Shown piece by piece: positions 7,905 to 59,676 of a stretch of DNA of 64,000 bases. The translations under genes were made by a program, and so were the position numbers. The DNA is from an uncultured Candidatus Saccharibacteria bacterium. GTDB lineage: Bacteria > Patescibacteriota > Doudnabacteria > UBA920. Within the stretch, counting starts at the first letter, position 1; the number at the start of each line of letters is the position of its first letter. Where the stretch lies: assembly GCA_964512925.1 (NCBI GenBank), contig CAZEKH010000001.1, positions 136,226 to 200,225 of the forward strand, in the 5' to 3' direction. The notes under the pieces were generated by a model. The model was not told where the DNA came from. It saw nothing but the letters and a program-made list of their open reading frames with translations, and ran no database searches.

Positions 7905-7998
7905 GTTGCCTCACCCCCCAGTACTATTTAGTACGGGGCAAGCCAGCCCCCAGCCCGAACGCCGCAAGCGGGCAGGTCTCCGATGTCGGAGAGGGGGT
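7905..7998. repeat. composite GC-rich palindromic repeat (CCTCACCCC / CCCGAACGCC...GGCGGGCAGGTCTCC-loop-GGAGAGGGGG modules)
   Basis: Same modules recur at 48320-48390, 48660-48740, 49140-49205, 52142-52200 and 55830-55900, and inside pgm at 33590-33650. Confidence 0.7.
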
Positions 7999-8004
7999 AG
8001 GGTG

Positions 8005-9105
8005 TTAAATTTGCAAATTGCTGTCCGCTGAAAGTTTTTTGTAGGAGATGGGTTTAAACCCGCCTGCTAGTTTAACCGCTGCGGCAATACCGATCATCTC
8101 TGCGTTGTCGCCGGTTAAGTGTAGGGGAGCGGGGAAGAATTTTAGTCCATTATTTTTAGACATTATCTCCAGTCTCTGCCTAAGCGCGCGGTTAGCGGCA
8201 ACTCCGCCTGACAGCGAGATGGATTTAGCGCCAAACTCTTTGGCTGCGCGCAGGGTTTTTTGGGTGAGAACATCTACAACCGCTTCCTGGAAGGAAGCGC
8301 AAATGTCAGAGGTAGCGTTTAGTGGGTAGCGTTTAGTGGGTAGGGACTGCAGGTGATAGAGGACAGCTGTTTTAAGACCGGAGAAGGAAAAGTTGTAGTT
8401 TTTGTGGGTGAGCATCGGGCGCGGGAAATTTATTGCCTTAGGGTCGCCTTTTTCAGCTAACTTGGAAACTTCCGGTCCGCCCGGGTAGGGAAGTTTGAAC
8501 ATCTTTGCCACTTTGTCAAAACATTCGCCCGCCGCGTCGTCCACGGTTTCGCCGATCACTTTATAGTTATGTAAATCTTTCATCAAAACCAGCATAGTGT
8601 GGCCGCCGGAAACTATGAGAGCAATGGATGGAAACACCCCCTCCCTTAATCCCTCCCCCGTTTTGCGGGAGAGGGAAGTGGAGAATGGTGAATATAGGTG
8701 GCCAAGCATATGGTTAATCGGGATCAGCGGTTTTTTTGTTGCCAGAGAAAGGGCTTTGGCAAACTCTACCCCTACGGCCAAAGAGACTATGAGCCCTGGG
8801 CCTTGGGTGGGGGCAATATAATCCAAATTTTCAATTTTTAATTTTGCAATTTTCAATGCCGACTCTACAACCGGGCGGATATATCTGATGTGAGCGCGGG
8901 CTGCGGCTTCCGGTACTACCCCGCCCATTTTGGAGTGGATTTTAATTTGGGATTTTACGACCGCAGACAGGATTTTTATTTCTGGCAATTTTTTATTAGT
9001 CCCCCTCTGCTGGTGAGGAGAGGGGTTAGGGGAGAGGTTACAGCTTAAAACCGCAGCAGCAGTTTCGTCGCAGGAAGTTTCAATGGCAAGAATTTTTTGC
9101 ATCAT
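8005..9105 (-). CDS. tsaD: tRNA N6-adenosine threonylcarbamoyltransferase TsaD (Kae1/Gcp family)
   Basis: N-terminal ILAIETSCDETAAAV, GGVAANRALR and C-terminal GDNAEMIG motifs. Two in-frame repeat-derived insertions (GEGLREGV; NLSPNPSPHQQRG). Confidence 0.85.
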   Translation of the reverse strand: MMQKILAIETSCDETAAAVLSCNLSPNPSPHQQRGTNKKLPEIKILSAVVKSQIKIHSKMGGVVPEAAARAHIRYIRPVVESALKIAKLKIENLDYIAPTQGPGLIVSLAVGVEFAKALSLATKKPLIPINHMLGHLYSPFSTSLSRKTGEGLREGVFPSIALIVSGGHTMLVLMKDLHNYKVIGETVDDAAGECFDKVAKMFKLPYPGGPEVSKLAEKGDPKAINFPRPMLTHKNYNFSFSGLKTAVLYHLQSLPTKRYPLNATSDICASFQEAVVDVLTQKTLRAAKEFGAKSISLSGGVAANRALRQRLEIMSKNNGLKFFPAPLHLTGDNAEMIGIAAAVKLAGGFKPISYKKLSADSNLQI

Positions 9106-15292: not shown

Positions 15293-15368
15293 TCCCTTGA
15301 GGGGAGGGGTTAGGCCTGCCCGAAATGCATGAGCATGCATATGCGATGCAGGCGGGGGAGGGTGATGC
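15293..15368. repeat. ~50-bp repeat, inverted copy at 32325-32385
   Basis: GGCCTGCCCGAAATGCATGAGCATGCATATGCGATGCAGG is the reverse complement of 32330-32378. Confidence 0.7.
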
Positions 15369-20128: not shown

Positions 20129-20319
20129 TTGAGCAAAAATAAGTAAAATTGACAAAATTGATCAAAATTTAATAAAACGGGACTTACGTATATGGTGTCA
20201 TTCCCGCGGAGGCGGGAATCTAGTTAGTATAACTGTGTTATTTATTAATAAAATTTACTCTGTCACGTCTATTCATCTTTGATAAAAAAAGACAATATGG
20301 ATTTTTAAAAGTGAATAGA

Positions 20320-23089: not shown

Positions 23090-23215
23090 TTTTATAACCC
23101 GCATCTGTCATTCCGGAAATTCCAATCATTAAGGAATTATCCGGAATCTAGCTTTTTTACCCTGGATCCCAGCTCTCTCCGCCTGCTGGCGGATAGTCTG
23201 GGATGACAAAAAGTT
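23090..23215. repeat. two adjacent copies of the TGTCATYCC-hairpin-GGRATC element family
   Basis: CTGTCATTCCGGAAATTCC...GGAATTATCCGGAATC and CCTGGATCCCAG...CTGGGATGACAAAAAG. Confidence 0.6.
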
Positions 23216-29785: not shown

Positions 29786-30880
29786 CTATGCAGATGTTAG
29801 GAAATGAACAACATCCCCATCCTGTACCACATAGGCTTTGCCTTCGGTGCGAAGCCAGCCTTTTTCTCGGGCCTTGCCATAGCTGCCGGCTTCCAGGAGT
29901 TTGTCCCACTGGATGACTTCCGCGCGGATGAAGTTTTTTTCAAAGTCAGAGTGGATCTTGCCTGCGGCCTCAGGCGCTTTGGAGCCGGCTACACAAGTCC
30001 AGGCTTTGGACTCTTTTGGTCCCGCCGTGATGAAAGTTACCAAGCCCAAAGTTTTGTAGGCTTGTTTGATGATTTTGTTTAAACCTGACTCAGGCAGTCC
30101 CAGCTCTTTTAAATATTCGCTCCGTTCTTCGTCAGAAAGTTCGGAAAGCTCGGATTCAAGTTGCGCATCAGCAGATATAAAATCCTTATAGTCCCCCTCC
30201 CCAGGCTTGGGGAGGGTTGGGGAGAGGTCGAAGTTTTTAGTACTTAAATCAAATTTCTGGTTCGCCACAAACAAAAACGGTTTTGTGGTAAGAAGCTGGA
30301 TGTCTTTGCTGTTTTCTTTTTCTTCATCGCTCAAAGAAACTTCAGACGCCATTTTCCCTTGGTTTAAAGCTTCTCTATATTTTTCCAAAACCTGTTTTTT
30401 TATAACCATTTCCCGGTCGCCGGATCTGGCGCCTTTGGAAGCGGTCTCAAGCCTTTTTTCCACATTTTGCAGGTCAGCCAGCTGAAGCTCCAGGCCAATA
30501 GTTTCCATATCCCTTTTTGGGTCCACAGTGCCGGAAACGTGGATGATGTCCTTGTTTTCAAAAAACCTTATAACTTCCATTATAGCGTCCACTTCTCTTA
30601 TGTTTGCCAAAAACTGGTTACCCAAACCTTCGCCTTTGTGCGCGCCGGCAACCAAACCTGCGATGTCCACGAACTCTATGGTAGTAGGCACGACTTTTTC
30701 ACTTTTTTCCTGCTGGGCAAGTTTTCCAAGCCTCTCGTCCGGCACTGTTACGACTGCCACGTTTGGTTCAATAGTTGCAAAAGGGTAGTTGGAAGCCACA
30801 ACCTTGCTTTTGGTAATGGCGTTAAAAAGTGTGGATTTGCCTACATTTGGCAGGCCGACAATGCCGATTTTGAAGCTCAT
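29786..30880 (-). CDS. ychF: ribosome-binding ATPase YchF (Obg-family GTPase)
   Basis: GIVGLPNVGKSTLFNA, NYPFATIEPN, C-terminal TGS domain. In-frame repeat insertion at 30190-30235 (PKPGEGDYKDF). Confidence 0.9.
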   Translation of the reverse strand: MSFKIGIVGLPNVGKSTLFNAITKSKVVASNYPFATIEPNVAVVTVPDERLGKLAQQEKSEKVVPTTIEFVDIAGLVAGAHKGEGLGNQFLANIREVDAIMEVIRFFENKDIIHVSGTVDPKRDMETIGLELQLADLQNVEKRLETASKGARSGDREMVIKKQVLEKYREALNQGKMASEVSLSDEEKENSKDIQLLTTKPFLFVANQKFDLSTKNFDLSPTLPKPGEGDYKDFISADAQLESELSELSDEERSEYLKELGLPESGLNKIIKQAYKTLGLVTFITAGPKESKAWTCVAGSKAPEAAGKIHSDFEKNFIRAEVIQWDKLLEAGSYGKAREKGWLRTEGKAYVVQDGDVVHFLTSA

Positions 30881-32214: not shown

Positions 32215-32479
32215 GGGAGTGTTATAATATTAATACTTGCGGTTTTCAATGAATTTTCTATTCTGATTTTTCAAGGTGGAGTGGAATTGCTTAAAGTTAT
32301 TGATTATTTAAAGTTCAGGGGTCCCCACCTGCATCGCATATGCATGCTCATGCATTTCGGGCAGGCCTCCACTCCTCGGATGCACTCGTCGGTCGGGATG
32401 ACAAAAAGAATTTGGGGAGGGTTCTTGCTTAATACTTAATACTTAATACTTAATACTTAATACTGAGCATCCCACACAA

Positions 32480-33940
32480 ATGCAAAACATAGATACTTCC
32501 ATTTTCAAAGCCTATGACATAAGGGGTATATATCCAACACAGATAGATGCGGATTTGGTATATAAAATTGGTCAGGCGTATTTGCAGTTTCTGCAAACGC
32601 GGAATTACGCTGACCAAGACGCGGACTTACGGAGAAAGTTTAAAATTGTAGTGGGACACGATATGCGCCTGTCTGGGGAGGAGTTTTCTGAAAGCGCAAT
32701 CCGCGCTTTGACAGACGCGGGAGCGGATGTGGTGGATATCGGCCTGGTTTCAACTGATCAGTTGTACTTTGCTGCCGCGACTTTGGACGTTGATGGCGGT
32801 ATTCAGATCACTGCCAGCCACAACCCGAAAGAATACGGCGGGATGAAATTGGTTAGGGAAAAAGGCCGGCCGATTTCGGGGGATAGCGGAATTTATCAGA
32901 TTCGGGATTTGGTAATAAGTAATCAGAAATCAGTTATCAGTGATCAGAGAGGAAGAGTGGAAAAGAAGGATATTACTGAAGAGTATTATAAACATATACT
33001 AAAAACTTTTGAAATAAGTAAATTTAAAAAATTCCGTATAGTTGCCAATGCCAACTTTGGGATGGCTAATCCCGCCATCGAAAAGCTTAAAACTCTTTTG
33101 CCAATTGAGTTTGTGGAAGTTTTAAATGGCCATTTGGACGGCAGTTTCCCTAAAGGACCTTCGGATCCACTACTTCACTCTAACCGTGAAGAAACTATAG
33201 AAGCCATAAAAAAGCACAAACCGGATTTGGGCGTGGCTTGGGACGGGGACGCTGACCGTTGTTTCTTTTTTGATGAGAACGGAAAATTTGTCACACCCGC
33301 GTACATAAACGCGATTTTAGCAGAATACTATTGCAAAAAAAATCCAGGCTGCAAGATACTTCACGATACCAGGGTTGTAAGAGTGATTGATTATGCCGTA
33401 GAAAAAAACGGGGGAGTGAGTGTCATGAACAAAGCCGGCCACTCGTTCATAAAAGAGCGGATGATCAAGGACGACATTGTTTTTGGCAATGAAACTTCGG
33501 GGCACTATTATTTCAAGGACAATTTTTATCTGGATAACGGCCTAATGCCGTTTTTGGCAATACTGTCAATTTTGTCCGAATATATATCTCCCTCATCCTT
33601 TGCGGGAGACCTGCCCGCCGTGGGTGTTCGGGCGGGGGGTCAGGGAGAGGTCGTGCTGTTATCCGATATTCTACAGCCTTTACGCGAGAAGTTTTTTATC
33701 TCCGAAGAGATAAATTTTAAAGTCAAAGATGCCAATCAGGTTATTGAAAGCCTCAGGCAAAAATACCAGGAAGCCAAAATAGATGAAATAGACGGTTTGG
33801 ATTTTAATTTCCCATCCTGGCGCTTCAATGTGCGCAAAAGCAATACAGAACCGCTTTTAAGGCTCAACTTGGAAGCTAATAGCCAAAAAGAGCTTGAGGA
33901 AAAACAAAAAGAAATTAGCGATTTAATTTTAGCCATATGA
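32480..33940 (+). CDS. phosphomannomutase/phosphoglucomutase (alpha-D-phosphohexomutase family)
   Basis: Active-site TASHNPKEYGGMK, metal-binding DGDADR. In-frame palindromic-repeat insertion at 33590-33650 (SFAGDLPAVGVRAGGQGEVV). Confidence 0.85.
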   Translation: MQNIDTSIFKAYDIRGIYPTQIDADLVYKIGQAYLQFLQTRNYADQDADLRRKFKIVVGHDMRLSGEEFSESAIRALTDAGADVVDIGLVSTDQLYFAAATLDVDGGIQITASHNPKEYGGMKLVREKGRPISGDSGIYQIRDLVISNQKSVISDQRGRVEKKDITEEYYKHILKTFEISKFKKFRIVANANFGMANPAIEKLKTLLPIEFVEVLNGHLDGSFPKGPSDPLLHSNREETIEAIKKHKPDLGVAWDGDADRCFFFDENGKFVTPAYINAILAEYYCKKNPGCKILHDTRVVRVIDYAVEKNGGVSVMNKAGHSFIKERMIKDDIVFGNETSGHYYFKDNFYLDNGLMPFLAILSILSEYISPSSFAGDLPAVGVRAGGQGEVVLLSDILQPLREKFFISEEINFKVKDANQVIESLRQKYQEAKIDEIDGLDFNFPSWRFNVRKSNTEPLLRLNLEANSQKELEEKQKEISDLILAI

Positions 33941-40399: not shown

Positions 40400-41005
40400 A
40401 AATATCACCCCCCAGCCCCCTCTTACTTTAAGAGGGGGAGGAGAAAAAAAGGCTCTAATTATTTTATAGAAATGATATTGTTCCGTCCCTCCCCTTAAGA
40501 TAAGGGGAGGTTAGGAGGGGATACTTTTTAGCGCATTTATTGTTTGCAGAATTTTTTCTCCTACGCCATCAATATTTTTAAATACATCAGTATTGTAAAA
40601 TCTTAATACAATAATATTTTGTTTATCTAAAAATTTAGTGCGGATTTCATCATTGATTTTATTTTGTATCTCTAAATGCTGTCCGCCGTCTAACTCAATA
40701 GCAAGTCTTAATTTTGAACAATAAAAATCCAAAATATAATTACCCACGCTATATTGCCGCGTAAATTTATAACCCGTTTGTCTGTTCCTTAAAATCTGCC
40801 AGAGTTTGTATTCTGCATCTGTTTGGTTGTTGCGAAGATTTTTTCTAAGTTGCTTTAACTGTGGGTGTTGGTAAAACATAAAGTATGAGTGAATATCACC
40901 CCCCAGCCCCCTCTCCTGCCAAAGGCGGGCAAGTATTTTAAGAGGGGGAGGTTATTTTTGCATTATCCCTCCCCTTAAGATAAGGGGAGGTTAGGAGGGG
41001 ATAGT
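40400..41005 (-). mobile_element. DUF559 endonuclease cassette bounded by ~110-bp direct repeats
   Basis: Direct repeats 40400-40510 and 40893-41005 (m1 ATCACCCCCCAGCCCCCTCT...TAAGAGGGGGAGG; m2 TCCCTCCCCTTAAGATAAGGGGAGGTTAGGAGGGGATA) flank the 369-bp ORF. Confidence 0.4.
40511..40879 (-). CDS. DUF559 endonuclease-domain protein (Vsr/restriction-endonuclease-like fold)
   Basis: YILDFYCSKLRLAIELDGGQH motif typical of DUF559. Confidence 0.75.
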   Translation of the reverse strand: MFYQHPQLKQLRKNLRNNQTDAEYKLWQILRNRQTGYKFTRQYSVGNYILDFYCSKLRLAIELDGGQHLEIQNKINDEIRTKFLDKQNIIVLRFYNTDVFKNIDGVGEKILQTINALKSIPS

Positions 41006-41013
41006 GTTTCGAA

Positions 41014-42975
41014 TTATAAACTCTTTTTTATAGTCTCTGCCAGTTTTTGCCCCACCACTTCAGCCAGTTCTTCCAATGATGAGTTTTTTATTTGGCTGAC
41101 TGTGCCGAATTTGGTTTTTAAGAGTTTTTTGGTTTTAGGCCCCACGCCCGGTATTTCGTCCAGCGCAGATTTAACGGCTTGCTTGCTTCTTAAGCTTCGG
41201 TGGAAAGTTATGCCAAACCTGTGGGCTTCGTCGCGAAGTCTTTGCAACATCTGAAGCCCGGGCTGATCGTGGCTTAAAACTATGGGAGTGGGATTGCCCG
41301 GTAAAAATATTTCCTCGATGCGTTTGGCCAAGCCGATCAAGGGTATAGGGCTAAGGGCTAAGGGTATAGACTCTATTTTTTCCAGCGCAGCGGATAGTTG
41401 GCCTTTGCCCCCGTCTATCACTATCAAATCCGGTATGGGCCAGAACTCCCCCGGCTTCGCCACCCCCTCTTTGGCAAAGAGGGGGGAGGGGGAGTTCGTC
41501 TGATTTACTGATCCACTGACCAAATGTCCCGACTTGGCTAGTCTTCTGCTTAGCATTTCCTGCATCATCTGGAAATCGTCCGGCGTGTCTTTTGTGCGGA
41601 TTTTAAATTTTCGGTATTCGGATTTTTTAGGCATTCCGCCCTCAAACACCACCATACTCCCGACCGCGTTAGTGCCCTGGGTGTTGGAGATGTCGTAACA
41701 TTCTATCCGCCTTGGGATATTTTTCAAATTCAAAACTTCTTTGAGTTGCTCCAATCCTGCATTTATCCTATCTAGCATAAAGGCTTCGGAAGACTGTTTT
41801 TGTTTGAGAAATTCCAAAGCGTTTTCTTCGGCTATTTTCCAGAGTTTTTGCGGTTGTTTTTGAATTGCTAAATTGATTTTAATAGTTTTGCCTGAGCGTT
41901 CTTTTAGTAAAGCTTCTAGAAGGTTTTGATTTTCAATTTTAGTTCCAGTATAAATTTTTTTCGGAAAATCCGAAGTCTTACTATAATAGTCCTCTAAAAA
42001 CCTTTGCAGCCCAGTTTCTTCCCCCCTTAAGATAAGGGGGGACTGAGGGGGGTTATGATGCAGAGTGGATTTGTAGACATTTGTAAATTTGTCTTTCATT
42101 TGTATATTTGAATTTTTGTAGACAAAATTTTCCTTATCTGCCAGTTTTCCTTGCCTGACTTTCAGTAGACTAAAAGAGATCTCCCCATTTGCTTGGCTTT
42201 GCCCGACAACATCCCAGGAAACTTTTTTAGGCATAATCACATTTTGCTTTTGTTCCAGAGATTCTAGGGATTTGATTTGGTTTCTAAGGCGCGCGGCTTT
42301 TTCAAAAAGTTTTTTAGCCGCGGCTTTTTGCATTTCTCTGGCAATTTCTTTTTTTACGCCTATTATGTCGCCTTGTAAAAATTTTTTAATTTTATCGAGA
42401 TGTTTTGCGTATTCTTCAAGGGTTATTGAGCCTATGCACACACCAGGGCAGCGGTGCAGATGAAAGTAAAAGCAAGGTTTTTGGCCAATTTTCTCATTGG
42501 CGCAATAGGAAAAGATGTAGCGGACAGTTTTAAGAATCTCTTTGGCTTTGTAAGCGGCGGAGTAGGGACCGAAAGAAGTAGGGCTAAGGGCTAAGGGTTT
42601 AGGGTGTAGGGATAGTTCAATATTTCTGGAAATGGTTATTTGGGGTATTTGTGTTGAGTAGTCAATGACAATAAACGCATAGCTCTTGTCGTCTTTTTGG
42701 AGGATGTTGTATTTGGGGCGGTATTTTTGGATCAGGGTTTGTTCCAGGTACAGGCTTTCAAGTTCAGTTGAAACTACTGTAAAGTCTAAGCTTTTTGCTT
42801 CCTGCATCAAGAAAGGAATTTGAGGTCTTTCATCTGTGCCACGGAAATACTGGCTAACTCGGTTTTTCAGGTCTTTGGCTTTACCCACATACAAAACCGC
42901 CCCGTCTTGGTCTTTGTAAATATAGACCCCGGGTTTTTTGGGGAGGCTTGGGAGGGTGAAACTTATTTTTTTCAT
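41014..42975 (-). CDS. uvrC: excinuclease ABC subunit C; start at internal Met MKKISF (the ORF track's upstream extension translates an intergenic hairpin)
   Basis: N-terminal GIY-YIG (GVYIYKDQDGAVLYVGKAKDLKNR), UvrBC interaction region, RNase-H-like endonuclease, C-terminal HhH. At least four in-frame repeat-derived insertions. Confidence 0.9.
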   Translation of the reverse strand: MKKISFTLPSLPKKPGVYIYKDQDGAVLYVGKAKDLKNRVSQYFRGTDERPQIPFLMQEAKSLDFTVVSTELESLYLEQTLIQKYRPKYNILQKDDKSYAFIVIDYSTQIPQITISRNIELSLHPKPLALSPTSFGPYSAAYKAKEILKTVRYIFSYCANEKIGQKPCFYFHLHRCPGVCIGSITLEEYAKHLDKIKKFLQGDIIGVKKEIAREMQKAAAKKLFEKAARLRNQIKSLESLEQKQNVIMPKKVSWDVVGQSQANGEISFSLLKVRQGKLADKENFVYKNSNIQMKDKFTNVYKSTLHHNPPQSPLILRGEETGLQRFLEDYYSKTSDFPKKIYTGTKIENQNLLEALLKERSGKTIKINLAIQKQPQKLWKIAEENALEFLKQKQSSEAFMLDRINAGLEQLKEVLNLKNIPRRIECYDISNTQGTNAVGSMVVFEGGMPKKSEYRKFKIRTKDTPDDFQMMQEMLSRRLAKSGHLVSGSVNQTNSPSPLFAKEGVAKPGEFWPIPDLIVIDGGKGQLSAALEKIESIPLALSPIPLIGLAKRIEEIFLPGNPTPIVLSHDQPGLQMLQRLRDEAHRFGITFHRSLRSKQAVKSALDEIPGVGPKTKKLLKTKFGTVSQIKNSSLEELAEVVGQKLAETIKKSL

Positions 42976-43677: not shown

Positions 43678-46584
43678 ATGGCTGATATCATTTCTATCCG
43701 CGGGGCGCGGATGCATAACTTAAAAAATATTGATGTAGATTTGCCTAGAAACAAGCTGGTGGTTTTAACCGGCCTGTCAGGCAGCGGCAAGTCGTCTTTG
43801 GCTTTTGACACCATCTATGCCGAAGGGCAGAGAAGGTATGTGGAAAGTTTGTCAGCTTATGCCAGACAGTTCATTGGTCTTATGGACAAGCCGGACGTGG
43901 ACAAAATAGAAGGTTTGTCCCCGGCAATTTCCATTGACCAAAAGTCCGCATCGCACAACCCTCGCTCTACTGTCGGAACCGTAACTGAAATTTATGACTA
44001 TATGAGGCTACTTTGGGCTCGTGTGGGAGTGCCTCATTGTCCGGTCTGCGGGAAAAAAATCCAAGGTCAAACTATCCAGGCAATGGCTGAGCAGCTTTTG
44101 GGTTTGGAAAAAGGCACAAGGCTGATGCTTTTGGCGCCTTTTATTAAAGATCAAAAAGGCGAACACCGGCATATATTTGAACAGATCAAAAAAGCCGGTT
44201 TTGCCCGCGTGCGTGTGGATGGCACAGTGATGGACTTAAACGAAGCCCAGGGTTTAAGCCTGGACAAGCAAAAAAAACATAATATAGAAGTGGTGGTGGA
44301 CCGCGTGGTGGTAGATCCGGCTGAACGGGGCAGACTCTCCGAGAGTCTGGAAAAGGCTGCGGATTTGGGCGATGGGATAGTTATAGCTTTGCGGGTTGCT
44401 GAAGAAACAAAACCTGACAGCAAGACGCGATCAACCTCTCCCCAGCCCTCCCCAAGTCTTGGGGAGGGAGGCTATAAGGAAATATTGCTCTCCCAAAAAT
44501 TCGCTTGTCCGGACGGACACATTCAGCTGTCTGAGCTGGACCCGAGGGATTTTTCTTTTAACAGCCCGCACGGAGCTTGTTCGGAGTGTAAGGGTTTGGG
44601 CACTAAGCTGACGGTGGAGCCGGATTTGGTTTTACCCAACCACCGGCTGACTTTGGCTGAAGGCGCTATCCGTCCCTGGAGCAAGACGACTTCCAGACAG
44701 TCCTGGTACTCGCGGATGCTGGAAGCCGTGGCCAAAGAATACGGTTTTTCCGTACACACTCCGGTGAAAGATTTGCCAAAAAAATATATTGATATTGTTT
44801 TGCACGGTTCAGGCGAGAAAAAAATCCGCATCTCCGGCGAGTTTAGGAGCGGCGACGGGGAGTTTGAGATGAACACGGTTTTTGAAGGCGTGGTGCCAAA
44901 CCTGGAGAGGCGGTACCGCGAGACTGACTCGGAATATATGCGCAGCGAAATAGAAAATTATATGCGCGTGCGCCAGTGTCAGGTTTGCCACGGCAAGCGC
45001 CTTAGGCTGGAAGTTTTGGCTGTGACCGTAGGCGGACAGGGGATAGTGGAGGTATCTGCTATGACTATAGACAAAGCCGCGGATTTTTTTGAAAAACTTT
45101 CCAAATCTTTGAGCGCCAAAGACAATCAGATTGCCAAACAAATTTTAAAGGAAATTTCCGCGCGTCTGTCTTTTTTGCTCAATGTTGGTTTGTCGTATTT
45201 GTCTTTGGACAGAACTGCGGATACTTTGTCCGGTGGGGAAGCCCAGCGCATCCGTTTGGCGACCCAGATCGGCAGCGGCCTGACCGGAGTTTTGTATATA
45301 TTGGACGAGCCATCTATCGGCCTGCATCAGCGCGACAACGGTAGACTCCTTAAAACATTGAAAGATTTAAGAGATTTGGGCAATACGGTGATAGTTGTAG
45401 AGCACGATGAGGAAACCATTCGCGAGGCGGATTGGGTGGTGGACATCGGACCAGGAGCCGGCAAGCACGGAGGCGAGCTGGTGGCGGAAGGTAAACCTTT
45501 GGATATTGAAAAAAATCCGAAAAGCATCACCGGGCAGTATTTGTCAGGAAAAGAATACATAGAAGTGCCGAAAAAAAGACGGCACGGCAACGGTAAAAAT
45601 ATTTCAGTTGTGGAAGCTTCTGAGTTTAACCTGAAAAATGTTACAGCCCAGATCCCGCTCGGCAAATTTGTCTGCGTAACCGGGGTGTCAGGTTCCGGCA
45701 AATCTACATTGATTTCTGACATTTTAGCCAGAGCGTTAAACAAACATTTTTGGGACAGCAAGGACGAACCAGGCAAGCATAAAAAGATCACGGGACTTGA
45801 ACACCTAGACAAAGTCATCAGCATTGACCAAAGCCCCATAGGCAGGACTCCGAGGTCAAACCCGGCTACTTACACCGGGCTGTTTACGCCGATCCGGGAG
45901 ATTTTTGCCGAAACCCGCGAAGCCAAGATGCGCGGCTATCAGGCTGGCAGGTTTAGTTTCAACGTCAAAGGCGGTCGTTGTGAGAAATGCGCCGGGGACG
46001 GGGTTTTGAAAGTCGAGATGAATTTTTTACCCGATGTCTATGTAACCTGCGAAGAGTGCAACGGCAAAAGGTATAACCGCCAGGCTTTGGAGATCCACTA
46101 TAAAGAAAAAACCATTTCCGATGTTTTGGAGATGACAGTTGACGAAGCAAAAACTTTTTTTGCAGCCGTGCCTGCCTTGCACAAAAAACTGGAAGTCTTG
46201 TCCCAGGTGGGCTTGGGCTATATGCGCCTGGGCCAGAACGCCACGACTTTGTCCGGCGGGGAAGCTCAGAGGATCAAACTTGCAACCGAACTGTCGCGCG
46301 CGTCTACCGGCCGCACTCTTTACCTTTTAGACGAGCCAACTACGGGCTTACATTTTGCGGACGTCAAACGTTTGATCCACGTTTTAAACAAACTGGTAGA
46401 CAAGGGCAACACTGTGGTGGTCATAGAACACAATCTGGATATGATCAAAACCGCGGATTGGCTTTTGGATATGGGTCCGGACGGGGGAGACAAGGGCGGA
46501 ACTATAGTTGCCGAAGGCACACCCGAAGATGTGGCAAAAGTCAAAGTTAGCTTTACCGGCCAATACCTAAAAAAGATTTTATAA
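43678..46584 (+). CDS. uvrA: excinuclease ABC subunit A
   Basis: Two ABC ATPase modules ([12 protein letters not shown]; [11 protein letters not shown]), zinc fingers and signature motifs. In-frame repeat insertion at 44430-44480 ([17 protein letters not shown]). Confidence 0.95.
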
Positions 46585-48289: not shown

Positions 48290-49215
48290 TTTGTATAATT
48301 TTTTACATACTAATTAACTCCCCCAAGGCCCCCCGTCCGAACGCCCACGGCGGGCAGGCCTCTTTAAAAAAGAGGGGGGAATGAAGCGGGTAGGTTTGAA
48401 AAAGAGTGGAAAAAATATTACAGTCGTTGCAACCTCACCCCACCCCCTCTCCGATAGCGGAGAGGGGGAAGCGGATGCAAGATTCCAGCCGGAGTTTACC
48501 CCGATGAACATCGGGGCGGGAATGATACCTTTTCTATTTTTGTCATCCCCACATAACCGGGGATCTTGGTTTTTACCCTCTCCAATATGGGAGAGGGTGT
48601 CCCGATGAACATCGGGACGGGTGAGGTTTGAGCGATGGTGATAAAATATAAGTTGGTTTAATTTTCTAACATTGTTACCTCACCCCATCCCCCCGCCCGA
48701 ACGCCACAGGCGGGCAGGTCTCCCAAATGGGAGAGGGGGTAAAGAACGCATCATTCTCACCTAGTGGGAATGATATAGAAACGCGGAATGACGGAATATT
48801 TTTCCTATTTTCCCCAAGTTTCCCACATAGCTTTGCACAGGGGTTTTCCACTTTTGGGGGATAATTTTTGCTGTTTGTTGGGCTTTGACCAGAGGCAGGC
48901 TTTTGTGCCAAGATATAAAGACCACTTTTTACCCCCGTTAGAAGCAATCCGCCGTCAGGTGGATACCGAGCCTTTTTGTGCCCGGGCTTCTAACGGGGTG
49001 ATCTGGTTTGTGGGGACATTAACTCCCCCTGACCCCCTCTTTGAAAAAGAGGGGGAAATGAAAGGGGGTAGATTTGAAAAAGAGGGGAGAGGCTTAAAAT
49101 ATTACAATCATCGTAACCTCACCCCCCTACTTCGTTAAAACTTCGTAGGGCAAGCCAGCCCCCCGCCCGAACGCCCAAGCCGGGCAGGTCTCCGATAGCG
49201 GAGAGGGGAACTAAT
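48290..49215. repeat. ~0.9-kb non-coding repeat cluster
   Basis: Contains CCCTCTCC-loop-GGAGAGGG hairpins, CCGATGAACATCGG hairpins, CCCGAACGCC..GGCGGGCAGGTCTCC modules, a TGTCATCCCC..GGGGATC element and a 75-bp GGTGAGG..CCTCACC MITE-like unit. Confidence 0.7.
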
Positions 49216-50517: not shown

Positions 50518-50895
50518 TAATTTGCTGTCATCCCGGCCTTGAGCCGGGATCCAGGGTTATATGCAAAACGAATGTTATGTATACATCCTTGCAAACAAAA
50601 GAAACGGAACACTGTATGTGGGAGTGACCAATGACTTAATAAGAAGAGTTTATGAACATAAAAATGATTTAACAGAAGGCTTTACTAAAAAGTACCAGAT
50701 ACACACTTTAGTCTATTTTGAAAATACAGGAAATATAGAAAGCGCAATAAAAAGAGAAAAACAGTTAAAAAGATGGCAAAGACAATGGAAAATATCCCTT
50801 ATTGAAAAACAAAATCCGCAGTGGAATGAGTTATACTCTAACTTGACTTAACCCTGGATCCCGGATATCCGCCTAAGGCGGATTCCGGGATGACA
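50518..50895 (+). mobile_element. GIY-YIG gene bounded by inverted hairpin repeats
   Basis: Left TGTCATCCCGGCCTTGAGCCGGGATCCAGGGTT (50521-50553). Right AACCCTGGATCCCGGATATCCGCCTAAGGCGGATTCCGGGATGACA (50840-50887). Both are members of the same element family, in opposite orientation. Confidence 0.4.
50561..50851 (+). CDS. small stand-alone GIY-YIG nuclease (UPF0213-like) inserted between pilB and pilC
   Basis: CYVYILANKRNGTLYVGVTNDLIRRVYEHKN. Confidence 0.7.
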   Translation: MQNECYVYILANKRNGTLYVGVTNDLIRRVYEHKNDLTEGFTKKYQIHTLVYFENTGNIESAIKREKQLKRWQRQWKISLIEKQNPQWNELYSNLT

Positions 50896-51023: not shown

Positions 51024-52142
51024 ATGTTTAATTTAAAAATTCAAAAAAACACACCTGAACTAGTTACTTCTCCGTCGTTTTTTACCCGCCTTGTTGAAGG
51101 TTCCATCTCCCGCTCGGAGCAGGTGCAGTTTGCAAAGAGGCTGGCTTTTTTGATGCGCGCGGGAGTGCCGATTTTAGAGAGCCTGCAGATTTTGGCCGGG
51201 CAGTCTAAGACTAAAGGCGGCAAAAAAATGTTAGAGAATTTGGTGTCAGAAGTTTCCAACGGGCATTTTTTGTCTACCGCAATGGCTAAGTTTTCTTCCG
51301 TGTTTGGTGACTTTGCGGTCAACATTGTCAAAGTCGGGGAACAGGCTGGCATCTTGCCTGAGAATTTAAACTATTTGGCGGAGGAGCTGAAAAAAAAGCA
51401 GGCGCTGAGAAAAAAAGTGATGGGCGCTTTGTTTTACCCGATATTTATAGTGGTGGCCACGCTTTTGTTGGTGGGACTTTTAACTGTCGTGGTGTTTCCT
51501 AAAGTTTTACCCATCTTTACCAGTATCAATGTGCCTTTGCCTGTTAGCACAAAAATTCTAATGTCAGTCAGCCGGTTTCTCATAGCTTATGGATTTTGGG
51601 TGTTGATTTTGATATTGATTTTTCCCTTCGCTCTTTTGTTTTTATCCCGCTTGCCTAAAGTCAAAGCCTGGCTGGATAAAGTTTTGCTGAAAATTCCGTT
51701 AGCCGGTAGCATTGCCCAGAACTATTATTTGGCTAACTTTTGCCGGACTATGGGACTGCTACTCAAAGGCGAGTCGCGCCTTGACGAAGCTTTGCAGACT
51801 TCCGCGCGTACCACGCAAAATATGGTTTACAGAAAGCAGCTGGAAAACCTGGCGCAGACTGTAGCGAAAGGCAGTAGGATGTCCGAGTATATGCTGAAAA
51901 ACAAAAAATATTTTCCGGATATGGTGTCTCATATGTTGGCCGTGGGGGAAACCGCGGGCAACCTAAGCGAGAGTTTTATGTATCTGGCGGATATGTACGA
52001 AACCGAGGTAGATGACCAGACAAAAAATTTATCTACTCTCATTGAGCCGGTTTTGATGGTGTTTATGGGCCTGTTGGTCGGTTTTGTTGCGATTTCCATC
52101 ATCACCCCAATTTATTCGGTTACCCAGAAATTACATCCATAA
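51024..52142 (+). CDS. pilC: type IV pilus inner-membrane platform protein PilC (GspF family)
   Basis: Two T2SSF repeats and three TM segments. Confidence 0.85.
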   Translation: MFNLKIQKNTPELVTSPSFFTRLVEGSISRSEQVQFAKRLAFLMRAGVPILESLQILAGQSKTKGGKKMLENLVSEVSNGHFLSTAMAKFSSVFGDFAVNIVKVGEQAGILPENLNYLAEELKKKQALRKKVMGALFYPIFIVVATLLLVGLLTVVVFPKVLPIFTSINVPLPVSTKILMSVSRFLIAYGFWVLILILIFPFALLFLSRLPKVKAWLDKVLLKIPLAGSIAQNYYLANFCRTMGLLLKGESRLDEALQTSARTTQNMVYRKQLENLAQTVAKGSRMSEYMLKNKKYFPDMVSHMLAVGETAGNLSESFMYLADMYETEVDDQTKNLSTLIEPVLMVFMGLLVGFVAISIITPIYSVTQKLHP

Positions 52143-52265
52143 TGCCCCTCTCCGAGCACGGAGACCTGCCCGCCGTGGGCGTTCGGGCGGGGGGTTAGGG
52201 TGAGGTAACAGTGTTTGAATATTAAATAAGCTTAAATTTTATTACCATCGCTTAAACCTCACCCC
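52142..52265. repeat. composite repeat including a 75-bp MITE-like element (GGTGAGGTAACAG...TTAAACCTCACC)
   Basis: Near-identical copy at 52870-52990. Related copies at 48610-48683 and 58930-59005. Confidence 0.7.
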
Positions 52266-52311
52266 AGCCCTCTCCCATATAGGAGAGGGAGTAAAAACAT
52301 TTCTGACAATT

Positions 52312-52797
52312 ATGATCAATTCTGCGCAATCTAAAAACGGGTTTACCCAACACCATTTTTTTTTAGAAAAAAATAGTGCTGGGTTTACCCTCATAGAAGT
52401 TTTGGTTTCAATGGGTATACTGGCAATGCTGGGGACTTTGGGACTGGTGTTTGGGTTGGATTTTTATCGGGCGTATGCTTTTAACTCGGAAAGGGATTTG
52501 GCGGTGGGGATTTTACAAAAAGCGCGCAGTCGCAGTTTGGCTAACATTAACCAAACAACTCACGGAGTTTGTATTATAGGTTCTAAATATATTTTGTTTG
52601 AGGGTGCTTTAAATTGCGATCCGAACAATTCAGCCAATGAAGTTTATGATGCAAACCCAGGCGTTTCAAATTCGGGACTACAAATTGTTTTTCAGCAGCT
52701 TTCCGGTAGGCCGAATTCTGTTGGTTCTGTAACATTAACTTCGGGCGTGAGATCTTCGGTTATTAACATTAACGCTGAGGGGATGGTGGAGTGGTAA
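52312..52797 (+). CDS. pseudopilin / minor pilin (prepilin-type N-terminal cleavage/methylation domain)
   Basis: KNSAGFTLIEVLVSMGILAMLG class III signal. Confidence 0.7.
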   Translation: MINSAQSKNGFTQHHFFLEKNSAGFTLIEVLVSMGILAMLGTLGLVFGLDFYRAYAFNSERDLAVGILQKARSRSLANINQTTHGVCIIGSKYILFEGALNCDPNNSANEVYDANPGVSNSGLQIVFQQLSGRPNSVGSVTLTSGVRSSVININAEGMVEW

Positions 52798-53056
52798 AAT
52801 AATTTAAGATTAAAGATTAAAGATTGAAGATTTAAACAATACGTTTTTATTTTATATGTATGAGTTTTTTCAAATCCCCCTCTCCACTCTCGGAGAGGGT
52901 TAGGGTGAGGTAACAGTGTTTGAATATTAAATAAGCTTAAGTTTTATTACCATCGCTTAAACCTCACCCCTTCCCTCTCCCATATGGGAGAGGGAGTGAA
53001 AAATCAAAAAAAATAGGGTTGAGATAATGTAAAAAAAATGCTAAACTAAGGCGCAA

Positions 53057-54585: not shown

Positions 54586-55083
54586 ATGAGTTATAAATTA
54601 CAAAACCAAAATTTAACTCCCCCTAACCCCTCTTTGAAAAAGAGGGGTGAAGAAGCTGGGTTTACCCTGCTCGAGACTTTGCTTTATATCGCCCTCCTGT
54701 CTTTTTTTCTCGCGAGTTTGGTGGGTATCACTTATCAGTCTTTGGATTCAGCCGGGCAGATTGGCCGAAAAATTGCCATTCAGCAGGAAGCTAACTTTAT
54801 ACTTAGAAAAATGGACTGGGCTATAACCGGTGCTTCGGACATCACCGGAACTGCGGATCATTTAACAATCACAAGGACTGTTTCGCCTACTTCAGTTGAA
54901 TTTATCTCAGATACTCTAAACAAAGGTATGGACATCAAAGCCGAGCTTGGCCAGATGAAGTTAAACAGCAGTAACGTCAAAGTGGAAAATGTAAATTTTG
55001 TCATATCCGGCAGTCCGAAAAAAGTCGTAGCCAGTTTTGATATTAACGGAGAAAATTTTAGTTTGACTAGGTATTTGAGGTAA
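54586..55083 (+). CDS. pseudopilin / minor pilin
   Basis: EAGFTLLETLLYIALLSFFLASL. Confidence 0.7.
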   Translation: MSYKLQNQNLTPPNPSLKKRGEEAGFTLLETLLYIALLSFFLASLVGITYQSLDSAGQIGRKIAIQQEANFILRKMDWAITGASDITGTADHLTITRTVSPTSVEFISDTLNKGMDIKAELGQMKLNSSNVKVENVNFVISGSPKKVVASFDINGENFSLTRYLR

Positions 55084-55096
55084 CCGTTAGAGACTT

Positions 55097-55795
55097 ATGG
55101 AATATACTTATATTTTAAAAAGTAAAAAAGACGGTAAAATGTATACAGGTCTGACCAGTGATCTACGGAAGCGTTTTAAGGAGCATAATGAAGGTTTGGT
55201 TCCTTCTACAAAGAATAGAGGGCCATTTAAGATAATTTATTATGAAGCTTGTGTAAATAGACAAGATGCCGCAAGTAGAGAGATTTTTTTAAAAACTGGT
55301 ATGGGAAAGAGATATATAAAAAATCGTTTAAAACGCTTCCTGTCTCTAACGGCTCAAAGAGATAGTGCTAGCACCGTTATAAACAGCTTGCCAAAGTCAA
55401 GCGAAGTTTTTAACGGTGGATATATCGCTTTAACTTCCGTCATCATCGTTTCTTTATTGCTCCTGACTGTCATCACCGCTTTAAGCTCTGTTAACTATTT
55501 TTCCCGTTACAACATATTGGAAAACGAATATAAGGACAGAAGTTTTGCTTTGGCTGAAGGCTGTGTGGATTATGCTATAGGAAGACTGGCGGGAAATAGT
55601 AATTACATCGGTAATGAAACAGTAAACATCGGAGTCGGAACTTGTCAGGTGGCGTCAGTTTCTTCCGGGGCTTTTCCTAAAACTATCAGCACTGTCGGAA
55701 TTTTTCCACCCACGGCTGCAAAAAAAAGTTATACCAAACTTCAGGCAGTTGTAAGTTCAAGTTTCGCCATCAGTTCTTTTATAGAAAATCCATAA
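55097..55795 (+). CDS. GIY-YIG nuclease domain fused in frame to a pilin-like hydrophobic C-terminal half (possible insertion-generated fusion)
   Basis: First ~90 aa are GIY-YIG (YTYILKSKKDGKMYTGLTSDLRKRFKEHN). The remainder has GGYIALTSVIIVSLLLLTVITAL and an internal TTG that could start a separate minor-pilin ORF. Confidence 0.5.
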   Translation: MEYTYILKSKKDGKMYTGLTSDLRKRFKEHNEGLVPSTKNRGPFKIIYYEACVNRQDAASREIFLKTGMGKRYIKNRLKRFLSLTAQRDSASTVINSLPKSSEVFNGGYIALTSVIIVSLLLLTVITALSSVNYFSRYNILENEYKDRSFALAEGCVDYAIGRLAGNSNYIGNETVNIGVGTCQVASVSSGAFPKTISTVGIFPPTAAKKSYTKLQAVVSSSFAISSFIENP

Positions 55796-56112
55796 ATATG
55801 CTTGTCATTCCCTTGGCAAAGGGAATCTTGTACCCTCTCCCTCTCCGAGAGACGGGGATCTGCCCGCCTTGGGCGTTCGGGTGGGGGTAGGGGTGAGGTT
55901 ACGGATTTGATAAAATTAAAGATATTTAAATATGTAATATTAACCCCTGGATCCCGGATATCCCGCGAAGCGGGATTCCGGGATGACAGCAAAAATTTTT
56001 TGGAAAGATTGAATTTTGAACATTGAATCAAGATATTTCTAAAAAACCAACCGCCTTTACAAAAGGCGGATATAAAATTATAATTAAGCCATAAATATTA
56101 AATCATTAAAAT

Positions 56113-56702: not shown

Positions 56703-56996
56703 TTGATAAACTTTATTATGCAAAAAACTTTACCTGCATTTTTAAAACCTGTTGTTTGGTGGGCTAAGTTTGATGATTTGGATATTGAAAAAGACAAGGG
56801 AACTATTATTGCGCACATATTAAATACCGGAGATACAAAGGCCACAGACTGGATGAAATCTGTATATAAAGAACAAGATATTAAACAGGTTTTACTTGAA
56901 AAAAGACCAGGTTTTTGGGATAAAAAATCTTTAAATTTTTGGTCATTGGTTTATGGAGTAATGCCGAATTTTAATCAGATGCGCCAGATAAAATAA
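56703..56996 (+). CDS. hypothetical protein, candidate antitoxin partner of the downstream AbiEii-like gene
   Basis: 97-aa ORF ending 2 nt before the next start. Assignment by position only. Confidence 0.35.
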   Translation: MINFIMQKTLPAFLKPVVWWAKFDDLDIEKDKGTIIAHILNTGDTKATDWMKSVYKEQDIKQVLLEKRPGFWDKKSLNFWSLVYGVMPNFNQMRQIK

Positions 56997-56998
56997 CT

Positions 56999-57619
56999 AT
57001 GCATTTAGAAATTTTAGACAAAGAAAAACAAGATTTGTTGCCCCATCTAGTGCTATTTTCTCAGCAATTTTATTTAGCTGGTGGTACGGCTTTAGCTTTA
57101 CAACTTGGCCACAGGAAAAGTGAGGATTTTGATTTTTTTTCACAAACTGAATTTAACGAAAACGAATGGAATATCAAAACTGAAAAAGAATTTTTAAATT
57201 TTGGTTTAAAAAAAGTTACTGCCACTTGGCAGACTTTGGGGTATCATATTGGCGGGCATACCAGTTTAAGTTTGATGTGCTATCCGTACCATTTGCTTGA
57301 GCCGTTCGTAGAAATAAAAGGTTTAAAACTCGCTTCGCTTTTAGACATTGGTTGTATGAAATTGTCAGCCATTGTGTCGCGTTCTACCAGTAGGGATTAT
57401 GTTGACCTGTATATGCTTTTAAATGGGCATTTTGAGTTAGGTTTTTTGCTTGAAAAATGTAAAAAAAAGTTTCCAACTTTGGATACTAACCTCATCATAA
57501 AATCTTTGACTTATTTTGAAGATATGGAAGATAAAAATTTGGATATACTGGATCCTAAAATACCCGATATGAAAAAAATTCAGGAATTTTTTGTGAAAGA
57601 AGTAAAAAAGCTTGTATAA
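56999..57619 (+). CDS. nucleotidyltransferase, AbiEii/AbiGii toxin family (DUF1814)
   Basis: FYLAGGTALALQLGHRKSEDFDFF N-terminal motif typical of AbiEii. Confidence 0.6.
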   Translation: MHLEILDKEKQDLLPHLVLFSQQFYLAGGTALALQLGHRKSEDFDFFSQTEFNENEWNIKTEKEFLNFGLKKVTATWQTLGYHIGGHTSLSLMCYPYHLLEPFVEIKGLKLASLLDIGCMKLSAIVSRSTSRDYVDLYMLLNGHFELGFLLEKCKKKFPTLDTNLIIKSLTYFEDMEDKNLDILDPKIPDMKKIQEFFVKEVKKLV

Positions 57620-58779: not shown

Positions 58780-59100
58780 CCCTTGAGGGGGAGGGTTAGG
58801 GAGAGGTGATGCAGTGAATTTTTTTTCATCCTCGCGACTTGTCCTTCAGCAGTTTGAACGAAGGAGGAATGTGGGGATCTTGGTTTTTTGCCCTCTCCGA
58901 TATCGGAGAGGGTGTCCCGATGAACATCGGGACGGGTGAGATTTGAGCAATGGTGATAAAACATAAGTTTATTTAATTTTCTAACATTGTTACCTCACCC
59001 CTGACCCTCTCCGAAAGCGGAGAGGGGGAAGAGGATGCAAGATTCCCGCTGGAGTTTATCCCGATAAACATCGGGGCGGGAATGACAGCATTAAATGAAA
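58780..59100. repeat. second copy of the ~230-bp composite repeat unit (circularly permuted relative to 48437-48683)
   Basis: 58872-59005 matches 48553-48683. 59005-59095 matches 48437-48527, both at high identity. Confidence 0.75.
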
Positions 59101-59576: not shown

Positions 59577-59676
59577 GAAATTAGAAGAAAGTTTTTAAAT
59601 ATTAAAGTTTGTTACCTCACCCCAACCCTCTCCGAAAACGGAGAGGGGGTTTGGCCAGAAAATTAACAGAAACAAA

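Follow-up and report, generated by a model that had tools for sequence, protein, structure and literature searches.

The boxC repeat of Escherichia coli was redescribed first as the PIT element and later as an intrastrand triplex motif, TMECO (Holder et al. 2015, PMC4666352). It has been known for about 30 years and occurs in many copies in hundreds of bacterial genomes; its function and spreading are unexplained (PMC4666352). Strain MG1655 carries 23 copies, all intergenic, which form inverted doublets five times, and the isolated single strand of TMECO forms a stable triplex in vitro (PMC4666352). In E. coli, neither promoter nor terminator activity was seen for PIT/boxC elements (PMC4666352); Hoyne et al. 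2000 and the earlier boxC work are drawn on here as far as they are cited in that paper. In this study we describe a repeat with four copies in a 64-kb stretch of DNA, hereafter the window, from the assembly of an uncultured Candidatus Saccharibacteria bacterium placed by GTDB in the Doudnabacteria of the Patescibacteriota (GCA_964512925.1, contig CAZEKH010000001.1, positions 136,226 to 200,225). A sequence-only reading had taken this repeat for a 75-bp element resembling transposable elements of the miniature inverted-repeat type (MITEs), with GGTGAGG and CCTCACC as terminal inverted repeats (TIRs). Our analysis indicates that it is very probably an inverted doublet of boxC-type triplex units around an AT-rich spacer, i.e., a non-autonomous repeat that was copied within the genome. 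The source DNA was read in the 64-kb window, and its relatives in pieces of ~20 kb.

Structure of the element

The pattern GGTGAGG-N51-CCTCACC occurs exactly at 52199-52263 (+), 52904-52968 (+) and 48620-48684, with an expectation of 0.00 in 100 dinucleotide-preserving shuffles of the window, and a fourth copy at 58935-58999 has a single mismatch in one end (GGTGAGA). These are the four copies located by the sequence-only reading, to within 1-3 nt; the length of 75 bp that it gave is wrong, the core being 65 bp long in all four. The two copies at 52 kb, rightly called near-identical, agree at 64 of 65 positions, those at 48.6 and 58.9 kb agree at 60 of 65, and across the pairs the agreement is 55-56 of 65. 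Between copies, the AT-rich interior is 85-98% identical. The 48.6-kb and 58.9-kb copies lie in the orientation opposite to that of the 52-kb copies, as had been noticed. The gene coordinates also agree with the placement of the 52-kb copies just downstream of pilC-like and prepilin-type genes: copy 1 begins 3 nt past the stop codon of the T2SSF/PilC-like gene (51024-52142), and copy 2 follows the prepilin-type gene (52312-52797). A duplication of ~125 bp that had been claimed for this pair is real, but its intervals were given out of register. A gap-free match of 106 nt (95%) joins 52192-52297 to 52897-53002 and extends to the left into the outer hairpin once a 26-nt insert, present at 52165-52190 in copy 1 only, is removed.

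Alignment of the copies with other stretches containing GGGGTGAGG revealed that the TIR is a portion of a longer unit. This unit runs from a pyrimidine arm (CCCTCTCC) through a loop of 4-6 nt to a purine arm (GGAGAGGG), then through a loop of ~3 nt, often TTA, to a third strand (GGGTGAGG), with the consensus CCCTCYCC, 4-7-nt loop, GGRGAGGG, ~3 nt, GGGGWGAGG. The complete composite of ~123 nt consists of a hairpin, a third strand, the AT-rich spacer of ~50 nt, the opposite third strand and a second hairpin, the third strands facing inwards (Table 1). The inverted repeats are exact over 7-9 bp and reach ~35 nt when the hairpins are counted. As a single-stranded DNA, copy 2 folds into three stems by Watson-Crick pairing (z = -5.8). 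The 7-bp TIRs are best read as the third (reverse-Hoogsteen) strands of two inverted boxC/PIT/TMECO-type triplex motifs. The repeat is thus indeed short, non-coding and present in several copies, with inverted-repeat ends around an AT-rich core, and of the MITE-like character these ends and this core stand, but the ends correspond to third strands of triplex motifs and not to transposon ends. Likewise, the flanking CCCTCTCC hairpins are present as reported, and they belong to the element as the duplex parts of its triplex motifs. The sequence-only reading would have been given up for copies confined to four positions with no TIR conservation; the TIRs are in fact conserved, though for a reason other than the one it proposed.

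The spacer, too, is made up of two parts. The ~30 nt on its left (GGTAACARTGTTWGAAWATTAAA) are found again beside a single unit at 59594-59650 and, in a diverged form, after the third strand at 55892, while the ~25 nt on its right (TTTRAGCGATGGTRATAAAA) resemble the extensions of the units at 48441, 49125 and 7917 and, weakly, that of the sole unit in the related contig L126. Apart from this weak match, only chance 10-13-mers of the spacer were found in the relatives or in the metagenome contigs carrying module d (see below). Because the two halves of the core belong to separate unit-plus-extension modules that are also found apart, the element is a mosaic and not a deleted insertion sequence. 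All four copies contain one particular pairing of halves at the same length.

Relation to boxC-type triplex motifs

The strongest evidence for a triplex design comes from covariation. The third strand changes together with the hairpin subfamily (GGAGAGGG with GGGTGAGG, AAGGGGAGG with GGAGGGGAT, and AAGAGGGGG with GGGGGTGAT or GGGGGAGTT), which indicates that the mirror (triplex) relation is what is maintained. Circularity was avoided by a blind test in which polypyrimidine-polypurine hairpins were picked regardless of their flanks: at least 7 of 8 valid reverse-Hoogsteen triads were present in 19 of 44 flanks, compared with 0.9% of random and 4% of permuted ones. In the 19 passing flanks, G stands opposite G in 112 of 116 cases, and A or T opposite A in 35 of 36. 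Under the criteria of PMC4666352 (stems of 8 nt or more with no more than one mismatch, triads G.G:C, A.A:T and T.A:T, loops of 1-6 nt), an ITxF-like scan detected 16 class II purine-motif triplex motifs in the 64 kb, among them units of copies 1, 2 and 4, and none in each of 20 dinucleotide shuffles.

The published pattern of the E. coli motif is CCCTCNCCC-N3-6-GGGNGAGGG-N3-GGGNGAGGG, with TTA as the second loop of type A (PMC4666352). In copy 2, the unit on the right, taken as the reverse complement of 52962-52995, reads CCCTCTCCC-ATAT-GGGAGAGGG-AAG-GGGTGAGGT and follows this pattern with one mismatch; the remaining focal units match it at 8 of 9 positions per block, i.e., as shorter versions. 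A 19-mer that includes the TTA loop (GGAGAGGGTTAGGGTGAGG) is identical in the window and in E. coli unit no. 2, CCCTCTCCCTTGAGGGAGAGGGTTAGGGTGAGGGT (PMC4666352). The hrpB-mrcB spacer of E. coli, read directly, is built as hairpin-CCG-GGGTGAGGG-18 nt-CCCTCACCC-TAA-hairpin; 52875-52997 has the same layout, except that the E. coli spacer is shorter and GC-rich. When one genome per species was scanned for CCTCWCCC-N1-6-CCCTCYCC-N3-8-GGRGAGGG, there were, among the matches listed, proteobacteria, cyanobacteria, Chloroflexota, Planctomycetota, Bacteroidota, Bifidobacterium, Akkermansia and Omnitrophica; the doublets among these matches occur in both orientations, and inward third strands are separated by 13-48-nt spacers.

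The likeness to boxC/PIT/TMECO therefore extends from the three-block unit with its conserved stems, variable loops and a third strand obeying the purine-motif code to the occurrence as singlets and inverted doublets with inward third strands, the lack of a linked transposase and the presence or absence among relatives. On structure, pattern and doublet layout, the focal element can be classed as a lineage-specific member of this known family. It also differs from its E. coli counterpart in several respects. By the strict count, the window contains ~0.25 motifs per kb, about 50 times the 0.005 per kb of MG1655; units are found in frame within its genes, in contrast to the exclusively intergenic motifs of E. 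coli; and several covarying subfamilies in one genome and nested hairpin inserts are seen in the window only. The host is one of the Patescibacteria and neither a proteobacterium nor a cyanobacterium. Although the repeats look like those of Nostoc and Microcystis, a cyanobacterial origin was rejected: the window has a GC content of 43%, no HIP1 site was found in the 64 kb, its rpoC is unsplit, and its TrpS, PilC and small GIY-YIG protein have their closest named relatives in Candidatus Doudnabacteria or Patescibacteria. In the literature we found no report of boxC or triplex elements in the candidate phyla radiation, and the Patescibacteria host, the density, the in-gene copies, the long conserved spacer and the nested modules at fixed positions were not found described elsewhere.

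Several observations weigh against this assignment. The blocks of the focal units are mostly 8 nt long and not 9 nt as in E. coli, and the spacer, ~50 nt, AT-rich and conserved compared with 16-27 nt in E. coli, has no counterpart in the E. coli doublets or in the relatives compared; its conservation could mean that it has a function of its own. Units broken by nested modules, at least one in three of the four copies, are missed by the strict scan, and the 28-mer GGTGAGGTAACARTGTTWGAAWATTAAA has no exact match in the genome collection or in the JGI metagenomes. No stable triplex was formed in double-stranded DNA or in vivo, and Holder et al. found no transposase or integrase near the motifs (PMC4666352). 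Neither the window nor the literature offered an enzyme or a mechanism of spread.

Filled and empty sites

Related contigs sharing the gene order of the window were available for the trpS-uvrC-uvrA region (L003, L004) and for the pilus cluster (L126, L127). In the latter, both sites occupied by the 52-kb copies are empty (Table 1). The pilin gene between copies 1 and 2 is ancestral, so the two copies arose by two separate insertions or conversions and not by a segmental duplication. Within the window, the homology between copies does not continue into their flanks. Target-site duplications, for which the sequence-only reading had proposed to look, surround none of the copies: no direct repeat is common to the sequences flanking the four composites or to those flanking the 65-bp cores. 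No transposase was recognized by Pfam or NCBIfam scans, which covered 47 of the 73 window open reading frames (ORFs) with at least 70 aa. The density of units in the relatives ranges from 0 to 0.19 per kb.

Units inside genes

Single units also lie in frame within conserved genes. The block in uvrA is missing in three relatives and in the UvrA of a solved structure, one of the two unit sites of uvrC is unique to the window, and the unit in the phosphomannomutase/phosphoglucomutase gene corresponds to an 18-residue insertion relative to PDB 6nn2. In ychF, the loop that holds the unit is without one in L004, while L003 has another, double unit there. In tsaD, each of the two polypurine/polypyrimidine segments matches an insertion relative to the TsaD structure 6n9a, and neither is in the strict triplex list. 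As the unit is read in different frames in uvrA and ychF, the shared entity is the DNA and not the peptide, and the tolerance of translated units in essential genes points to a DNA-level element and not to a transcript signal.

In this behaviour the units recall the Rickettsia palindromic elements (RPEs), which were reportedly described by Ogata et al. in 2000. RPEs measure ~100-150 bp and are found between genes as well as in frame in conserved genes, to which they contribute short peptide loops; they are not known to be triplex motifs. The insertion of units in frame in conserved genes, with absence from orthologues, was seen in uvrA, uvrC, ychF, tsaD and the phosphomannomutase gene, and as with RPEs, palindromic repeats lie both between genes and within conserved genes with the frame kept. 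The in-gene copies are, however, single units of ~45-65 nt, shorter than RPEs, and the 123-nt composite itself was not seen in frame in genes; the two are likened by behaviour. RPEs are also mentioned in PMC1779305.

Two further in-gene units were observed. A triplex unit at 54612-54650 encodes part of a pseudopilin leader peptide (MSYKLQNQNLTPPNPSLKKRGEEAG|FTLLE), and this leader is 5-7 residues longer than in L126 and L127. In the uvrC of the relative L003, positions 2196-2244 hold in frame a double-tailed unit, AACTCCCCCC-TCC-CCCCCTCTTT-GGCC-AAAGAGGGGG-CA-GGGGGAGTT, and one hairpin can thus bear a third strand on both sides.

Nested modules

Three of the four copies contain secondary hairpin inserts of 20-26 nt. 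Module d (26 nt, CCTGCCCGCCGTGGGCGTTCGGGCGG) has the arms CCTGCCCGCC-N3-5-GYGTTCGGRCGG and cuts the purine arm of one outer hairpin as GGAGA/GGGG in copies 1 and 3, whereas module c (20 nt, GTCCCGATGAACATCGGGAC) stands in for the second loop in copies 3 and 4. Both fold as hairpins, and in the presence of module d the outer pairs of the host hairpin are retained, giving a three-way junction. Module d is present in copy 1 and missing from copy 2, the two copies being otherwise 95-98% identical. All seven copies of module d in the window split the purine arm of a triplex unit at one and the same point and have the same position and orientation relative to the third strand, despite the differing subfamilies of their host hairpins. 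In a metagenome scan, the module was found in 22 contigs (L129-L150), several of them from 0.1-um groundwater fractions of Hainich, and in about six contigs it lies within another hairpin's loop or next to it; triplex units in L132 and L138 are among these hosts. Neither module c nor module d was found in the triplex-unit loci of other phyla. Module d behaves like an independent micro-insertion.

Small dispersed repeats (SDRs) of heterocyst-forming cyanobacteria were reportedly described by Elhai et al. in 2008, in Genome Res 18:1484. They are hairpin modules of ~20-27 nt placed at fixed positions inside other repeats, and modules c and d may be likened to them in behaviour; the sequences and the phylum differ. 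A 46-nt inverted repeat pair at 15312-15357 and 32323-32368 (98% complementary; AGGCCTGCCCGAAATGCATGAGCATGCATATGCGATGCAGGCGGGG) belongs to another family and has ends like those of module d.

NTS/SRM hairpins and an SsnA-type nuclease

In Neisseria, a published NTS-ssnA-NTS arrangement comprises SsnA, a site-specific nuclease of single-stranded DNA, and a likeness to insertion sequences and to RAYT/REP has been noted (PMC11893778). In the window, a cassette with this arrangement is inserted between the pilB-like gene and the pilC-like one; in relatives, only 3-22 nt separate the two. Its gene product matches the Pfam family GIY-YIG (E = 9e-15) and is flanked by inverted hairpins, TGTC-ATCCCGGC..GCCGGGAT-CCAGGG on one side and CCCTGG-ATCCCGG..CCGGGAT-GACA on the other. 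A hairpin of this type at 20195, module e (GTGTCATTCCCGCGGAGGCGGGAATCTAG), fits the Neisseria NTS/dRS3 consensus CGTCATTCCCGCGMAVGCGGGAATCYRG (PMC11893778). The features expected of an NTS/SRM-SsnA system, a GIY-YIG gene of ~100 aa and oriented hairpins on both sides, are both found in module e and 50561-50851. Homologues of the GIY-YIG gene in two other lineages (L151; L153-L155, the latter with near-identical flanks) have the same flanking with different stem sequences. P0242, an SsnA on another contig, is 94% identical.

SRM-type ends also belong to several mosaics. Copy 3 lies in a mosaic with an intact left-end hairpin at 48541 and imperfect right-end candidates at 48767-48785 (GGGAATGATA / GGAATGAC), copy 4 in one with a truncated left end at ~58870 and an intact right end at 59079, and such ends also bracket the variant mosaic 55803-55989. 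As in Neisseria mosaics with dRS3/NTS and SsnA, module e hairpins accompany repeat mosaics near surface or pilus genes. In comparison with the Neisseria NTS system, however, module e is a neighbouring component of the mosaics, and two of the four focal copies have no nearby NTS hairpin. Ssn is thus regarded as a neighbouring system and a candidate helper rather than as an established driver.

Further observations concern the same hairpins and nucleases. A non-coding element of ~100 nt at 23106-23208 has SRM-type ends (TGTCATTCCGG... ...GGGATGACA), the right one overlapping the start of an EamA transporter gene (23203). Hairpins of the NTS/dRS3 type (GTCATTCCCGCGAAAGCGGGAATC) were seen alongside triplex units in L057, L068 (Dehalococcoidia) and L110, and NTS-type and triplex repeats travel together beyond this lineage too. 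At 55097-55795, a fusion-like ORF of 232 aa is 38% identical to the 96-aa protein in its GIY-YIG residues 1-66 and 57% identical to a 137-aa pilus-cluster protein of L126 in residues 105-215; a second small nuclease gene seems to have landed here at the 5' end of a resident gene.

Alternative explanations

A true MITE would be a deletion derivative of an insertion sequence, with a transposase encoded elsewhere that recognizes the GGTGAGG/CCTCACC ends (GGTGAGGTAACA.../...AAACCTCACC). This would fit the inverted ends, the small size, the AT-rich interior, the several copies and the insertion at sites that are compact in relatives, but it is very unlikely: target-site duplications are absent, the ends occur singly or with other partners within triplex units, the ORFs scanned include no transposase, and among the matches listed the end motif is common to many phyla with no linked transposase. 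In another reading, the element would be cargo of NTS/SRM-ended mosaics, moved or copied through SsnA (50561-50851) as REP/BIME elements presumably are by RAYTs. The TGTC-ATYCCSG..CSGGRAT-(CCAG/CTTG) hairpins around the gene, their recurrence at homologues in two other lineages, the match to the published NTS-ssnA-NTS arrangement (PMC11893778) and the ends that accompany copies 3 (imperfectly) and 4 (partially) and bracket 55803-55989 and 23106-23208 all speak for such cargo. We consider it unlikely as the explanation of the element itself, since SRM hairpins are missing on both sides of copies 1 and 2, the pair with the most recent duplication, SsnA was shown to cleave single-stranded DNA and not to transpose, and E. 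coli is rich in triplex units with no reported link to Ssn.

The position of copies 1 and 2 between co-oriented genes, directly after stop codons, raises the question of a transcript element of the pilus operon, i.e., an mRNA 3'-end stabiliser, a terminator or a hairpin sequestering the ribosome-binding site. The RNA folds are strong on both strands (z about -7), and the GGAGAGG arm stands at Shine-Dalgarno distance in places (54569 before the ATG at 54586, and in the unit before ychF). On the other hand, no T-tract follows the hairpins, terminator and promoter scans flag nothing inside the element and genuine terminators elsewhere in the region, there is no Rfam match (a gathering search of the window yielded two tRNAs only), both orientations are seen, and units lie inside coding sequences as well. 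The orthologous operon of the relatives works without units, and the lack of promoter and terminator activity of PIT/boxC in E. coli (PMC4666352) points in the same direction; a role in the transcript is thus quite unlikely. Blocks of such simple composition could also resemble each other by chance, as low-complexity polypurine/polypyrimidine DNA; this is extremely improbable and was rejected on the 0 shuffle matches for every pattern tried and the 85-98% identity of the AT-rich interior.

Spread and significance

For the doublet of triplex units, we hypothesize that the conserved property, and hence the one recognized and propagated, would be the fold of one DNA strand, a hairpin with a mirror-symmetric third strand. 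Copying would start from single-stranded or hairpin DNA in the course of replication, repair or transformation; no target-site duplication would be left behind, and no DDE transposase acting on the 7-bp ends would be involved. The spread could be REP/REPIN-like, through an enzyme acting in trans on single-stranded DNA, or could come from template switching at stalled replication or repair, which Holder et al. suggested at stalled forks as the cause of losses (PMC4666352). The AT-rich extensions would travel along with their units. Modules c (20 nt) and d (26 nt) insert into units at fixed positions and leave the fold unbroken.

Short GC-rich palindromes with an asymmetric conserved tail, occurrence as singlets and as inverted doublets around a spacer, mosaics with conserved linkers and the lack of target-site duplication are also characteristics of REP/BIME/REPIN (PMC3116915; PMC3733652). 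Unlike REPs, the units described here have no GTAG/CGTC tag, and their tail mirrors the purine arm, a feature absent from REPs; a RAYT gene (Y1 HUH transposase) was not found in the window scans. The REPIN/RAYT system may nevertheless serve as a good functional analogy.

It is possible, and we propose it tentatively, that the triplex units form an active hierarchical population of structure-specific micro-elements in this lineage of the candidate phyla radiation, with in-frame single units in surface loops of essential genes, inverted pairs that copy themselves between genes together with their AT-rich extensions, and second-order inserts, which has no dedicated transposase and may be driven by Ssn-type nucleases. 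If this is true, the genome would offer a natural setting for studying the spread of boxC/triplex repeats, a problem unexplained since the 1990s. The window places boxC-type repeats in a very small, streamlined genome type at some 50 times the density in E. coli, and three of its features are informative, namely orthologous sites with and without the element, copies kept in frame within essential genes, and third-strand covariation. Short-read assemblies break at such elements, which also inflate the "hypothetical" peptide loops of proteins in the candidate phyla radiation and can mislead the annotation of repeats and MITEs.

Table 1. Positions of the repeat elements, units and compared gene gaps in the window and in related contigs
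Feature	Position	Strand	Details
Copy 1	52145-52297	+	Layout as copy 2; left-hairpin purine arm split (GGAGA/GGGG) by module d 52165-52190; third strands 52198-52205 and 52257-52264; right hairpin 52268-52289
Copy 2	52875-52997	+	Uninterrupted reference, ~123 nt
Copy 2, left hairpin	52878-52899	+	CCCTCTCC-ACTCTC-GGAGAGGG
Copy 2, second loop	52900-52902	+	TTA
Copy 2, third strand	52903-52910	+	GGGTGAGG
Copy 2, AT-rich spacer	52911-52961	+	
Copy 2, third strand'	52962-52969	+	CCTCACCC
Copy 2, linker	52970-52972	+	CTT
Copy 2, right hairpin	52973-52994	+	CCCTCTCC…GGAGAGGG
Copy 3	48576-48739	-	Hairpin 48576-48597; module c 48599-48618 replaces second loop; third strand 48619-48626; spacer; third strand' 48678-48685; final hairpin ends at 48739, pyrimidine arm split by module d 48693-48718
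Copy 4	58891-59026	-	Hairpin 58891-58912; module c 58914-58933; third strand 58934-58941 = GGGTGAGA, one mismatch; third strand' 58993-59000; hairpin 59005-59026
Half element (truncated copy)	59594-59650	-	One triplex unit 59615-59647 and ~20 nt of the L-type spacer half
Diverged variant of the element	55889-55938		
Mosaic between SRM hairpin ends	55803-55989	+	Left end TGTC-ATTCCCTT..AAGGGAAT-CTTG; right end ..CCGGGAT-GACA; interior with module d (55859-55884) inside a triplex unit, a third strand at 55892 and a diverged L-type AT-rich half-spacer
Element B	48313-48468	-	CCCCCTCTT-type triplex unit (module d 48333-48358), R-type AT-rich extension and CCTCACCCC/CCCCCTCTCC unit
Element B, second copy	49018-49125		
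GIY-YIG cassette	50526-50895	+	NTS/SRM hairpin; 96-aa single-domain GIY-YIG gene 50561-50851 (SsnA-type); second NTS/SRM hairpin
Module d, seven copies	7951-7976, 33610-33635, 48333-48358, 48693-48718, 49163-49188, 52165-52190, 55859-55884		
Unit in uvrA	44431-44478	+	Single triplex-type unit, in frame; 7/8 valid third-strand triads; 48 nt, 16 residues
Unit in uvrC	42018-42061	-	Single unit, in frame (HHNPPQSPLILRGEETG); missing in three relatives
Second unit in uvrC	41449-41496		
Unit in phosphomannomutase/phosphoglucomutase gene	33590-33653	+	In frame; carries module d 33610-33635
Unit in ychF	30183-30230	+	Single unit, in frame, gene on minus strand; encodes DLSPTLPKPGEGDYK
Segments in tsaD	8635-8681, 8997-9040	-	Polypurine/polypyrimidine repeat segments, in frame
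Segments in valS	4367-4440, 4800-4848	-	Repeat segments in open frame; second holds strict triplex motif 4804-4837
Window, pilus cluster gaps			pilC-pilin gap 169 nt (153 = copy 1); after pilin 259 nt (123 = copy 2)
L126, pilus cluster gaps			pilC-pilin gap 206 nt; after pilin 63 nt; no triplex unit at either
L127, pilus cluster gaps			pilC-pilin gap 1 nt; after pilin 30 nt; no triplex unit at either

Other observations

Two Logan unitigs of the same organism were found, both shorter than 2 kb. One of them (L001, SRR14271332) has an identical pilC gene and ends 22 nt inside copy 1, as expected for a multi-copy repeat that breaks assemblies.

In the pilus cluster, 56703-57619 holds a 97-aa ORF followed by an AbiEii-type nucleotidyltransferase gene, a putative type IV toxin-antitoxin pair; no AbiEii-type gene was called in the corresponding stretch of L126 and L127. 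Between uvrC and secG, a DUF559 gene (Vsr-like endonuclease fold; 40511-40879, minus strand) lies between direct copies, 40401-40529 and 40892-41009, of a composite with two triplex units, and the uvrC-secG gap that holds it is 1247 nt long compared with 105-168 nt in L003 and L004.

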